Shown piece after piece: positions 11,942 through 47,788 of a stretch of DNA of 64,000 nucleotides. This DNA comes from Escherichia coli. Its GTDB lineage: Bacteria > Pseudomonadota > Gammaproteobacteria > Enterobacterales > Enterobacteriaceae. Position 1 is the stretch's first letter, and each line of letters begins with the position of its first letter. A model generated the notes under the pieces. That model saw nothing but the letters and a program-made list of their open reading frames with translations. It was not told the origin of the DNA and searched no databases. A program made the position numbers and the translations under genes. The stretch is from the NCBI RefSeq assembly GCF_013122565.1, contig NZ_CP053258.1; one strand, given 5' to 3'.

Positions 11942-12472
11942 ATGGCTATCACTGGCATCTTTTTCGGCAGCGACACCGGTAATACCGAAAATATCGCAAA
12001 AATGATTCAAAAACAGCTTGGTAAAGACGTTGCCGATGTCCATGACATTGCAAAAAGCAGCAAAGAAGATCTGGAAGCTTATGACATTCTGCTGCTGGGC
12101 ATCCCAACCTGGTATTACGGCGAAGCGCAGTGTGACTGGGATGACTTCTTCCCGACTCTCGAAGAGATTGATTTCAACGGCAAACTGGTTGCGCTGTTTG
12201 GTTGTGGTGACCAGGAAGATTACGCCGAATATTTCTGCGACGCATTGGGCACCATCCGCGACATCATTGAACCGCGCGGTGCAACCATCGTTGGTCACTG
12301 GCCAACTGCGGGCTATCATTTCGAAGCATCAAAAGGTCTGGCTGATGACGACCACTTTGTCGGTCTGGCTATCGACGAAGACCGTCAGCCGGAACTGACC
12401 GCTGAACGTGTAGAAAAATGGGTTAAACAGATTTCTGAAGAGTTGCATCTCGACGAAATTCTCAATGCCTGA
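11942..12472 (+). CDS. fldA: Flavodoxin 1
   Basis: 176 aa from ATG 11942 ([20 protein letters not shown]...); flavodoxin FMN-binding signature. Confidence 0.95.
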
Positions 12473-12677
12473 TGTGATGCGGCGTAGACTCATGTCTACG
12501 CCGTATTAATAGATAATGCCAATCAAAATAATTGCTACAAATTTGTAACTTTTGCTGTTGTACCTGTACAATGTCCCGGTGTTCAAGTGGCCTTGCCGTT
12601 GTAAATGTAAGCTGTGCCACGTTTTTATTAACAATATTTGCCAGGGACTTGTGGTTTTCATTTAGGCGTGGCAATTC

Positions 12678-12696
12678 TATAATGATACGCATTATC
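12678..12696. promoter_or_regulatory. Fur box (tataatgatacgcattatc) overlapping the uof start codon
   Basis: 16 of 19 matches to GATAATGATAATCATTATC; sits at the uof/fur translation start, consistent with fur autoregulation. Confidence 0.7.
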
Positions 12697-12768
12697 TCAA
12701 GAGCAAATTCTGTCACTTCTTCTAATGAAGTGAACCGCTTAGTAACAGGACAGATTCCGCATGACTGA
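12682..12768 (+). CDS. uof: Fur leader peptide Uof (28 aa)
   Basis: MIRIISRANSVTSSNEVNRLVTGQIPHD; stop overlaps fur start in ATGACTGA, giving translational coupling. Confidence 0.8.
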   Translation: MIRIISRANSVTSSNEVNRLVTGQIPHD

Positions 12769-13207
12769 TAACAATACCGCCCTAAAGAAAGCTGGCCTGA
12801 AAGTAACGCTTCCTCGTTTAAAAATCCTGGAAGTTCTTCAGGAGCCGGACAACCATCACGTCAGTGCGGAAGATTTATACAAACGTCTGATCGATATGGG
12901 TGAAGAAATTGGTCTGGCTACGGTATATCGCGTACTGAACCAGTTTGACGATGCTGGTATCGTCACCCGCCACAATTTTGAAGGCGGTAAATCCGTATTT
13001 GAACTGACACAGCAACATCACCACGATCACCTGATCTGCCTCGACTGCGGCAAGGTTATCGAATTTAGTGATGATTCCATCGAAGCGCGTCAGCGTGAAA
13101 TTGCCGCAAAACATGGCATTCGCCTGACTAACCACAGTCTCTATCTTTACGGTCACTGTGCCGAAGGCGATTGCCGCGAAGATGAGCACGCGCACGAAGG
13201 CAAATAA
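12761..13207 (+). CDS. fur: Ferric uptake regulator Fur
   Basis: 148 aa; HHHDHLIC...CxxC metal-binding motifs. Confidence 0.97.
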   Translation: MTDNNTALKKAGLKVTLPRLKILEVLQEPDNHHVSAEDLYKRLIDMGEEIGLATVYRVLNQFDDAGIVTRHNFEGGKSVFELTQQHHHDHLICLDCGKVIEFSDDSIEARQREIAAKHGIRLTNHSLYLYGHCAEGDCREDEHAHEGK

Positions 13208-13223
13208 GCCAGCCTGAATGAGA

Positions 13224-13252
13224 AAAAGCCAACCTGCAGGTTGGCTTTTTTA
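13224..13252. terminator. Bidirectional rho-independent terminator between fur and chiQ
   Basis: Perfect hairpin agccaacc-tgca-ggttggct flanked by an A-run and a T-run. Confidence 0.85.
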
Positions 13253-13291
13253 TGCAAGGAAAATAAGAAAAGCGAGAGTTACAGCTCTCTC

Positions 13292-13618
13292 TTATTTGTT
13301 ATTACTGCGAATTTCCTGCCAAACTTTATCACAATCGGCTTTCACCGCCTGATCATTTCCGGTTTGCGTTGCACGCAGACACTGCTGATAATCCAGTACG
13401 CGTACACTTTCCTGGTCGGCAAACTGCTGATGTTGTTTCTCTTTCTTCAGCACGTTTAACACGCTCTGGCAGGCTTCAATTTTTTCCGGCGAACCTTGCG
13501 CGGTGTTGATACAGGCGCTGTATGCCTCTTTCAGACGGCTGTCTTCCTGTGGCGCGGTTGATTGCGCACAAGCCACCAGCCCCGATGCCATCATGGCGAT
13601 GAGAATCAGTTTTTTCAT
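13292..13618 (-). CDS. chiQ: Lipoprotein ChiQ (YbfN)
   Basis: 108 aa; signal peptide with lipobox LVAC; immediately downstream of chiP on the same strand. Confidence 0.85.
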   Translation of the reverse strand: MKKLILIAMMASGLVACAQSTAPQEDSRLKEAYSACINTAQGSPEKIEACQSVLNVLKKEKQHQQFADQESVRVLDYQQCLRATQTGNDQAVKADCDKVWQEIRSNNK

Positions 13619-26936: not shown

Positions 26937-28191
<1,255 letters not shown>

Positions 28192-29602: not shown

Positions 29603-31027
29603 ATGACCAAAAAACTCCATATTAAAACCTGGGGCTGTCAGATGAACGAGTACGATTCATCGAAGATGGCCGATCTGCTGGATGCCACCCACGGCTATCA
29701 ACTGACCGACGTGGCGGAAGAAGCGGATGTGCTGCTGCTGAACACCTGCTCAATCCGCGAGAAGGCTCAGGAAAAGGTCTTCCATCAGTTGGGTCGCTGG
29801 AAACTGTTAAAAGAGAAGAATCCAGACCTGATTATCGGCGTCGGTGGCTGCGTGGCATCGCAAGAAGGCGAGCACATTCGCCAGCGCGCCCACTATGTCG
29901 ATATTATTTTTGGGCCGCAAACGCTGCACCGTCTGCCGGAGATGATCAACTCCGTGCGCGGCGACCGCAGCCCGGTTGTAGATATCAGCTTCCCGGAAAT
30001 CGAGAAGTTTGACCGTCTACCGGAACCGCGCGCCGAAGGGCCGACCGCGTTTGTCTCCATCATGGAAGGCTGCAATAAATATTGCACCTACTGCGTGGTG
30101 CCTTACACCCGTGGTGAAGAGGTAAGCCGTCCGTCTGACGATATTCTGTTTGAGATTGCCCAGCTTGCGGCTCAGGGCGTGCGTGAAGTCAACCTGCTCG
30201 GTCAGAACGTGAATGCCTGGCGTGGTGAAAACTACGACGGCACCACCGGATCGTTTGCCGATCTGCTGCGTCTGGTTGCAGCGATCGACGGGATCGATCG
30301 TATTCGCTTTACCACCAGTCATCCGATCGAATTCACCGACGATATCATCGAAGTGTACCGCGACACGCCGGAGCTGGTGAGCTTCCTGCATCTGCCGGTA
30401 CAGAGCGGTTCCGATCGCATTCTGAACCTGATGGGCCGTACCCATACGGCGCTGGAGTACAAAGCGATCATCCGTAAACTGCGTGCGGCGCGTCCGGATA
30501 TTCAGATCAGTTCTGATTTCATTGTTGGCTTCCCTGGCGAAACCACCGAAGACTTCGAGAAAACGATGAAGCTGATTGCCGACGTCAATTTCGACATGAG
30601 CTACAGCTTTATCTTCTCTGCACGTCCGGGTACACCAGCCGCCGATATGGTTGATGATGTTCCGGAAGAAGAGAAGAAGCAGCGTCTGTATATTCTGCAA
30701 GAGCGCATTAATCAGCAAGCGATGGCGTGGAGCCGTCGGATGCTCGGCACCACCCAGCGTATTCTGGTAGAAGGGACTTCACGTAAGAGCATCATGGAGC
30801 TTTCCGGGCGTACGGAAAATAACCGCGTGGTCAACTTCGAAGGCACGCCGGATATGATCGGTAAATTCGTCGATGTAGAAATTACCGACGTCTACCCGAA
30901 CTCTCTGCGCGGTAAAGTGGTGCGAACTGAAGATGAAATGGGTCTGCGCGTGGCAGAAACACCAGAATCGGTGATTGCCCGTACTCGCAAAGAAAACGAC
31001 CTTGGTGTGGGTTATTATCAGCCGTAA
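29603..31027 (+). CDS. miaB: tRNA-i6A37 methylthiotransferase MiaB (radical SAM)
   Basis: 474 aa; N-terminal MTTase cysteines, radical-SAM CxxxCxxC (CNKYCTYC), TRAM domain. Confidence 0.95.
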
Positions 31028-46681: not shown

Positions 46682-46810
46682 AAACTACATTTCGAGACTC
46701 AGTTATTTATACTTTTCTGACGCAACATAATACGCATAAAATAAGGCTTACGCAAAAATGGAACACATAAAAATATAATATGTTTTATCTACAACCATAA
46801 GGAAATGATA

Positions 46811-47788
46811 ATGATTTTTACGTCAAGTTGCTGCGATAATTTATCAATAGATGAGATTATCGAACGTGCTGAAAAAGGCGATTGCGAGGCTCAATATATT
46901 GTTGGGTTTTATTATAATCGCGATAGCGCAATTGACTCTCCGGACGACGAAAAGGCCTTTTACTGGCTGAAGCTGGCCGCTGAGCAAGGTCATTGTGAAG
47001 CACAATATTCCTTAGGGCAAAAGTATACCGAGGATAAAAGCCGTCATAAAGATAATGAGCAAGCCATCTTTTGGCTGAAAAAAGCTGCCCTACAAGGCCA
47101 TACTTTCGCTTCCAACGCCCTTGGCTGGATACTGGATCGTGGAGAAGACCCCAACTATAAAGAAGCGGTTGCCTGGTATCAGATAGCCGCGGAGAGCGGA
47201 ATGTCTTATGCGCAAAATAATCTTGGGTGGATGTACAGAAATGGCAACGGAGTCGCACAAGACTATACGCTGGCATTTTTCTGGTACAAACAAGCTGCAT
47301 TACAAGGCCATAGTGACGCGCAAAACAATCTGGCCGATCTTTATGAAGACGGAAAAGGCGTTGCTCAAAACGAGACACTCGCCGCATTCTGGTATTTGAA
47401 AAGCGCACAGCAGGGTAATCGGCATGCTCAGTTTCAAATTGCATGGGATTATAACGCTGGCGAAGGGGTGGACCAGGACTATAAGCAAGCGATGTACTGG
47501 TATCTGAAGGCTGCCGCTCAGGGGAGCGTCGGCGCTTACGTCAACATCGGTTATATGTATAAACACGGACAAGGCGTTGAGAAAGATTATCAGGCCGCCT
47601 TTGAATGGTTTACGAAAGCCGCTGAATGCAATGACGCCACAGCCTGGTATAACCTGGCCATTATGTATCACTACGGAGAAGGAAGACCTGTCGATCTCCG
47701 ACAGGCTCTCGACCTGTATCGTAAAGTTCAGTCATCCGGAACCAGAGATGTCAGTCAAGAAATTCGTGAGATTGAAGATTTACTGTAG
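46811..47788 (+). CDS. ybeQ: Sel1-repeat protein YbeQ
   Basis: 325 aa from ATG 46811 (better RBS spacing than 46805); tandem Sel1 repeats. Confidence 0.85.
   Translation: MIFTSSCCDNLSIDEIIERAEKGDCEAQYIVGFYYNRDSAIDSPDDEKAFYWLKLAAEQGHCEAQYSLGQKYTEDKSRHKDNEQAIFWLKKAALQGHTFASNALGWILDRGEDPNYKEAVAWYQIAAESGMSYAQNNLGWMYRNGNGVAQDYTLAFFWYKQAALQGHSDAQNNLADLYEDGKGVAQNETLAAFWYLKSAQQGNRHAQFQIAWDYNAGEGVDQDYKQAMYWYLKAAAQGSVGAYVNIGYMYKHGQGVEKDYQAAFEWFTKAAECNDATAWYNLAIMYHYGEGRPVDLRQALDLYRKVQSSGTRDVSQEIREIEDLL

Follow-up and report, generated by a model that had tools for sequence, protein, structure and literature searches.

The control region between fldA and fur in the 64,000-nucleotide (64-kb) window, by which we mean the whole stretch of DNA analysed, has the canonical Escherichia coli fldA-uof-fur arrangement, the same as in K-12, a conclusion that we hold with high confidence. 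The uof-fur leader is already known, being characterised and annotated in the E. coli core genome, and the window copy carries little weight as a discovery since it is the K-12 sequence. The outcome of use is an exact coordinate map of the promoters, transcription starts, footprint, Fur box, uof, UCA codon, RyhB core and stop/start overlap. On this map the Fur-controlled start lies inside uof, so that largely separate transcripts are subject to Fur autoregulation and to uof coupling; this split between transcript classes is visible in public data and seldom spelled out. The features are the following, in window coordinates.

11942-12472, plus strand: fldA (flavodoxin 1), the upstream gene, from the annotation of K-12 and of a collinear E. 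coli genome.
12543-12572, plus strand: distal promoter "Puof", with -35 TTGTAA (12543-12548), an 18-nt spacer and -10 TACAAT (12567-12572), 9/12 in the promoter scan.
12579, plus strand: start of the uof-containing mRNA (Kim 2012 Table S1, PMC3415461).
12655-12683, plus strand: proximal fur promoter from the promoter scan, with -35 TTTTCA (12655-12660), a 17-nt spacer and -10 TATAAT (12678-12683).
12670-12699, no strand assigned: window position of the DNase I footprint published for Fur at the fur promoter (Chen 2007 Table 3).
12678-12696, no strand assigned: Fur box TATAATGATACGCATTATC, 16/19 against the consensus and top matrix match of the 64 kb.
12682-12768, plus strand: uof, 28 codons plus TGA, peptide MIRIISRANSVTSSNEVNRLVTGQIPHD, identical to b4637 and matching NF011344.
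12691, plus strand: major fur transcription start, an A (Kim 2012 Table S1).
12697-12699, plus strand: uof codon 6, TCA (Ser), read from the sequence, its need for MiaB being taken from the literature.
12701-12714, plus strand: core pairing predicted with RNAduplex for RyhB, GAGCAA (12701-12706) and UGUC (12711-12714) against RyhB nt 38-47.
12747-12750, plus strand: weak fur Shine-Dalgarno AGGA, 10 nt before the ATG, anti-SD duplex -4.0 kcal/mol.
12754, plus strand: further 5' end from Kim 2012 (position 709876, 28 reads), lying past the Shine-Dalgarno and 7 nt short of the fur ATG.
12761-12768, plus strand: ATGACTGA, an 8-nt overlap with the fur start codon and the uof stop codon, read from the sequence.
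12761-13207, plus strand: fur, 148 aa, NCBIfam NF006999 equivalog (309 bits against a cut-off of 146).

Identity with the K-12 locus was established at several scales. Over the 296 bp from the fldA stop to the uof stop (12473-12768), identity with K-12 MG1655 is 100%; the source strain departs from K-12 at a few positions only, all in and after fur and none in the leader. When aligned to the characterised leader, the uof DNA is likewise 100% identical to K-12 MG1655 b4637 and shows no frameshift. A 901-bp query around the leader found matches in 5424 of 5426 complete E. coli genomes, with a top identity of 99.8%, and the 5424 matched genomes are annotated fldA, uof ("fur leader peptide"), fur and chiQ. 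The narrower interval 12640-12780 reaches at least 99% identity in 5096 of these 5424 genomes, and in an evenly spaced sample of genomes the majority are 100% identical. The earlier sequence-only reading had called the arrangement textbook and intact; every element it named is present, intact and the same as in the characterised K-12 locus. The K-12 uof-fur leader was reportedly described by Vecerek, Moll and Blasi in 2007 (EMBO J 26:965).

That uof is a 28-codon leader ORF with its ATG at 12682, as had been claimed, can be read directly from the sequence: the ATG (12682-12684) is followed by 27 more sense codons and a TGA (12766-12768), and the claimed overlap of the uof stop with the fur start (ATG, 12761-12763) is carried by ATGACTGA. 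The ORF list opens the uof frame at 12532 only because it counts from whichever possible start comes first behind a stop; uof is annotated as starting at 12682. A 28-codon ORF is statistically unremarkable by itself, with 46 ORFs of at least 20 aa in 2.5 kb. We therefore accept uof not for its length but because it is identical to an annotated gene, is described in the literature and scores 85.2 bits with the NCBIfam equivalog "fur leader peptide" (NF011344; cut-off 71), aligned over residues 1-28 of 28. Nothing supports an antisense ORF at 12462-12716 (84 aa). According to the cited literature, the sixth codon of uof, UCA, is read preferentially by MiaB-modified tRNA-Ser, MiaB being the Fe-S enzyme needed for its decoding. 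The window also contains miaB itself (TIGR01574, 738.7 bits; 29603-31027, plus strand), about 17 kb downstream of uof and 1149 bp further along than in strain PapM-32-1. Also present is a 326-aa ORF (27162-28142, plus strand), an IS110-family RNA-guided transposase by equivalog NF033542 (254 bits), which lies between the tRNA cluster and ubiF and is absent from the otherwise collinear closest genome, that of PapM-32-1, in keeping with the 1149-bp shift of miaB.

Transcription starts published for K-12 were mapped into the window through the identical sequence. The proximal promoter, TTTTCA-17-TATAAT, matches at 10/12 positions and is the best sigma-70-like promoter of the region in the promoter scan; its TATAAT, part of the Fur box, serves the main fur promoter as -10 and contains the first two bases of the uof ATG. 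The start reported at 709939 (Kim 2012 Table S1, PMC3415461), with a 51-mer ending in ...TATAATGATACGCA, falls at 12691, which is 7 bases past this -10, 70 nt ahead of the fur ATG and 9 nt past the A of the uof ATG. Two NC_000913.2 starts are assigned to uof in the same table: 710051, which maps to 12579, 7 nt past the distal -10 and 103 nt ahead of the uof ATG, and 710082, a minor start that maps to 12548. Reads numbered 46 at the first of these three starts and 8 and 5 at the two upstream of uof, a ratio of uof-less to uof-containing mRNA that comes from one K-12 data set and one growth condition, and in which fldA read-through transcripts, which also carry uof, are not counted by TSS-seq. 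The further 5' end at 12754 is either a second start or a processing site. These positions correspond to two promoters of the cited literature, Pfur within the uof ORF, giving the "fur mRNA", and Puof upstream of it, giving the "uof-fur mRNA"; the literature also reports co-transcription, by which read-through from fldA yields fldA-uof-fur transcripts.

Because the start at 12691 lies inside uof, the Fur-repressed transcript is without the uof start codon, which is carried by the transcripts from 12579, from 12548 and from fldA read-through and is missing from the major one. uof is translatable only from distal-promoter transcripts or from fldA (and ybfE) read-through. This qualifies the view, put forward from the sequence, that the site combines autoregulation with leader-peptide coupling: both elements are present, but the box is the operator of a promoter whose transcripts begin inside uof. 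Operator control and leader-ORF control should accordingly not be assumed to act on the same RNA, the Fur-controlled start being inside uof. The geometry also has a practical side, as any mutation of the uof start codon alters the Fur box too and adjoins the -10.

Two further elements were seen upstream. A near-perfect palindrome, GCTACAAATTTGTAAC (12534-12549; core TACAAATTTGTA, 12536-12547), overlaps the distal -35 and is kept from Escherichia to Yersinia and Serratia. Directly after the fldA stop lies a 10-bp hairpin, CGGCGTAGAC-TCAT-GTCTACGCCG (12480-12503), without a T-run; its position is kept in relatives while its stem sequences vary. Its possible roles are those of a leaky terminator or of an RNA-stability element, either of which would govern the amount of fldA read-through into uof.

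The Fur box was said to sit on the uof ATG, and TATAATGATACGCATTATC at 12678-12696 does include the ATG at 12682. Sixteen of its 19 positions agree with the 19-bp consensus GATAATGATAATCATTATC, and no other stretch of the 64 kb has three mismatches or fewer, 0.01 such matches being expected. Scoring relied on a symmetrised matrix of nine sites from other footprinted K-12 promoters (fepA-fes, fepD-entS, fepB-entC, cir, sodA, fecI and fhuF), the fur site being excluded. With 20.1 bits the box falls within the 17.4-24.3 of the training sites, absolute values that are generous given the small size of the matrix and the use of the consensus to seed its sites. A poor match can be dismissed, as the box ranks first in the scan of the 64 kb, ahead of the next site at 18.2 bits (mean -21.4, sd 8.5). 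That second-best match, GGAAATGATAATGATTTTT at 46801-46819, falls in the AT-rich intergenic region between ybeR and ybeQ, where it overlaps both ATGs (46805 and 46811) that are candidates for the start of ybeQ; it may be a genuine Fur site or a chance match due to AT-richness.

Chen 2007 (PMC2189734) places the DNase I footprint of De Lorenzo 1988 at NC_000913.2 709931-709960, with two predicted sites (walkers), the strongest of 12.3 bits. As the sequence is identical to that of K-12, the footprint maps, by window position = 12682 + (709948 - x), to 12670-12699, enclosing the box. Relative to the proximal start the box occupies -13 to +6, and on the distal transcript +100 to +118. Lying over the -10 and the start, it has the classical occlusion geometry, from which RNA polymerase would be expected to be excluded on binding.

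We consider it very improbable that the box is merely a strong -10 region resembling the consensus by chance, with no autoregulation of fur through it. One could cite for this the left half, TATAATGAGACGCA, kept order-wide as a promoter element even where the 19-mer falls below 8 bits (Yersinia, Serratia and Pantoea, in which the promoter half alone is kept), together with the published 12.3 bits, at the low end of footprinted sites. However, a DNase I footprint is reported by Chen 2007 over exactly this stretch, the matrix that puts the box at the top of the 64 kb excluded fur, and the right half CATTATC, unneeded for a -10, is retained in Escherichia, Citrobacter and Salmonella. The full 20.1 bits are found in Escherichia, some Citrobacter, one Enterobacter and Salmonella, and the Enterobacter/Leclercia group has a box of 16.9 bits. 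We thus retain the box as the Fur operator of the proximal promoter.

The position of the main start bears on uof itself. It can be argued that uof is largely a by-product of overlapping non-coding signals, that its coupling matters for a minor share of fur mRNA, since the main fur transcript starts at 12691, and that the functional units are the two promoters, the operator and the fur initiation region. We regard this as unlikely. In its favour are the 46 reads against 8 and 5 and the northern blots of the cited literature, in which a decrease caused by RyhB was seen for the short fur mRNA but not for the uof-fur mRNA. Further points come from a comparison across the order.

The comparative set, retrieved with a pattern for the fur N-terminus, comprises at least 120 Enterobacterales species among the matches listed; as these species are related, the counts below are not independent events. 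Among the matches listed, the blocks conserved over much of the order are GGTTTTCATTT (the -35), TCTATAATGA(G/T)ACGCA (the -10 and first transcribed bases) and TAACAGGACAGATTCCGCATGACTGA, and TTTTCA-N17-TATAAT occurs in 67 of 120 fur loci. Conservation of the distal block GCTACAAATTTGTAAC...TGTACAAT extends as far as Yersinia and Serratia. The uof ATG is made by the conserved -10 and the next G (TATAATG, in 66 of 120 species among the matches listed), and the stop by the conserved ATGACTGA (96 of 120 among the matches listed), with many of these species lacking uof. Both ends of uof therefore come from elements that are conserved for other reasons, since TATAATG and ATGACTGA are so widely kept.

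Among the matches listed, 29 of the 66 species with TATAATG have an intact ORF running from it to the TGA of ATGACTGA: Escherichia, Citrobacter, most Enterobacter, some Leclercia, Kluyvera, Pseudocitrobacter, Phytobacter, Pluralibacter gergoviae, Siccibacter, Superficieibacter and two others. Elsewhere 1-nt indels break the ORF: Salmonella enterica arizonae, Klebsiella oxytoca, Raoultella and several others are left with 14-20 codons of it. Most Yersinia and Serratia have an ORF of just four codons. The 23 distinct sequences of 28 or 29 codons show no third-position bias in codons 5-16, which speaks against conservation of the peptide sequence; UCA stands at codon 6 in nine of them and is absent throughout in 12.

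The same 23 sequences also speak against uof as a by-product. Their uof frame has no stop at all, the two remaining frames 86 and 20; a shuffled interior would stay open only about 24% of the time, and in-frame versions of 28 or 29 codons persist despite very different middles. In addition, the uof-lacZ, coupling and RyhB experiments, as summarised in the citing literature, favour a functional uof, and the fldA read-through transcripts that TSS-seq leaves uncounted carry it. Taken from sequence comparison, the pattern fits a uof that, in one sub-lineage, would matter through the act of translation rather than through its peptide, and that could be lost elsewhere.

Other short ORFs were noted in relatives. 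In Salmonella enterica arizonae (L105), in which a 1-nt indel breaks the uof frame, the ORF from the TATAATG start has 16 codons and stops 30 nt before fur. Klebsiella oxytoca (L101) and Raoultella planticola (L110) have a separate 14-codon ORF, MEVDRLATGQIPHD, which starts from a downstream ATG and still ends in ATGACTGA. In the Cedecea group (L049, L010, L082) and Mangrovibacter (L062), the upstream ORF that begins at TATAATG is read in a different frame; after 23-26 codons it terminates at the TGA of ATGA and so overlaps the fur start by 4 nt. Two of the three frames can thus find an overlapping stop in ATGACTGA.

Two statements of the sequence-only reading concern translation, and both have counterparts in the literature. 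The cited papers state that fur translation is coupled to that of uof, and likewise that RyhB blocks uof initiation, in keeping with the description of the site as a known target of small-RNA control of fur. They add that inversion of RyhB G44/C45 abolishes repression of both uof and fur. Using the K-12 sequence of RyhB, RNAduplex predicts the core pairing at -11.9 kcal/mol, with G44 opposite C12704 and C45 opposite G12703; an extended duplex between 12665-12714 and RyhB 38-76, which spans the uof start, reaches -24.4 kcal/mol. These energies do not rise above background, as the uof region lies near the median in a tile scan of the window. An accessibility-corrected search did not prefer uof and favoured 12822-12846, inside fur, and 12636-12656, and full-length RyhB against the whole leader gave in RNAduplex long, loop-riddled duplexes matched by 121 of 300 shuffles. 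The published model of the RyhB-uof pairing was likewise hard to predict (PMC3018821). The modelled pairing at uof is hence consistent with the literature and indistinguishable from background by energy. Lying downstream of 12691, the predicted core would be present on the short mRNA too, which fits the reported lowering of that mRNA by RyhB.

Shine-Dalgarno complementarity is weak at both initiation regions. The anti-SD duplex of -4.0 kcal/mol before fur compares with -3.6 for the best site before uof and an average of -2.6 kcal/mol for random 22-mers, and the block TAACAGGACAGATTCCGCATG at the fur Shine-Dalgarno is kept order-wide among the matches listed. In the minimum-energy fold of the short leader, the fur AGGA (12747-12750) is paired with 12709-12717, and the predicted occlusion of the fur start is moderate, at about 6-7 kcal/mol to open. 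As RNA, the palindromic box is predicted to form a weak hairpin of -2.1 kcal/mol that contains the uof AUG. Overall, leader stability was nothing unusual against shuffles for the short and long leaders (z = +0.28 and -0.22).

EcoCyc counts uof among its "leader peptides", and as a short ORF in a 5' leader it might be taken for a transcription-attenuation leader peptide of the trpL/thrL kind, a possibility to which we give next to no credence. No terminator-like hairpin lies between 12682 and 12761, the overlap of the ORF with the start of fur leaves no room for alternative hairpins, MIRIISRANSVTSSNEVNRLVTGQIPHD holds no run of regulatory codons, and no Rfam leader family matches. An attenuator of the trpL, thrL or hisL type, lacking here its terminator/antiterminator pair, codon run and Rfam match, was therefore ruled out. 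An Rfam scan by E-value over 12300-13400 found nothing in the leader and gave sub-threshold matches only, on the hairpin after fur. One of these, at 13217-13296 on the minus strand in the hairpin region between fur and chiQ, is to the enterobacterial sRNA STnc370 (36.1 bits against a gathering score of 54) and most likely reflects terminator hairpins.

The locus most probably works as follows. Iron-loaded Fur binds the box at 12678-12696 (footprint 12670-12699) on the DNA and covers the -10 and the start at 12691 of the main fur promoter, so that polymerase is blocked, which, by the literature and the mapped coordinates, is the autoregulation. Transcripts from 12691, beginning within uof, have no usable uof AUG, and Fur would probably be made from these short transcripts by direct initiation at the weak Shine-Dalgarno. 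Transcripts from 12579 or from fldA read-through carry the same 19 bases as RNA, there serving as the uof initiation region. Ribosomes finishing the 28 codons would, following the literature, terminate within AUGACUGA at the UGA, and ribosomes would thereby be brought to, or unmasked at, the fur AUG, giving coupling. RyhB, made when Fur is inactive, would pair around the uof start and early codons and so lower uof and hence fur translation, and decoding of uof would, through the UCA at codon 6, be dependent on MiaB, an Fe-S enzyme. A roadblock to transcripts initiated upstream may be a further effect of Fur at the box.

A broader reading, which we advance tentatively and as less probable than its negation, is that fur is expressed from two mRNA pools: a major autoregulated pool that bypasses uof, and a distal/fldA pool that alone is under uof coupling and UCA decoding. 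The textbook uof/RyhB/MiaB route would then perhaps be a minority one, and uof an add-on restricted to one lineage (Escherichia, Citrobacter, Enterobacter and relatives) and repeatedly lost by 1-nt frameshifts.

Compared with known systems, the locus is the K-12 uof (b4637)-fur leader itself, having in common with it the 28-codon ORF, the Fur box, the ATGACTGA overlap, the UCA at codon 6 and the fldA-uof-fur synteny. With the upstream regions of fur in other Enterobacterales (Yersinia enterocolitica, PMC7867234, and the 120 species listed), it has in common fldA upstream, both promoter blocks, the Shine-Dalgarno region and ATGACTGA, whereas uof is missing or truncated in Yersinia, Serratia, Klebsiella, Raoultella and Salmonella arizonae, and the box falls from 20.1 bits to less than 8 bits beyond the Escherichia/Citrobacter/Enterobacter group. 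Like fepA-fes, fhuF, cir, sodA, tonB and other promoters (Chen 2007, PMC2189734), fur has a 19-bp palindromic box over its core promoter, and the score of the box is within the range of the footprinted Fur-repressed promoters. In contrast to those promoters, fur has a single strong 19-mer, the matrix finding no strong neighbour sites at 6-bp offsets of the box; its published 12.3 bits are among the weakest of the footprinted Fur sites, and the gene regulated is that of the repressor itself. The control of uof by RyhB resembles the action of GcvB on thrL and ivbL (reviewed in PMC7534054), where an sRNA likewise blocks a short upstream ORF and lowers downstream expression. Unlike in those cases, the link between uof and fur is translational coupling via an overlapping stop and start rather than attenuation, and RyhB is itself repressed by the product, Fur, so that the feedback loop is closed.
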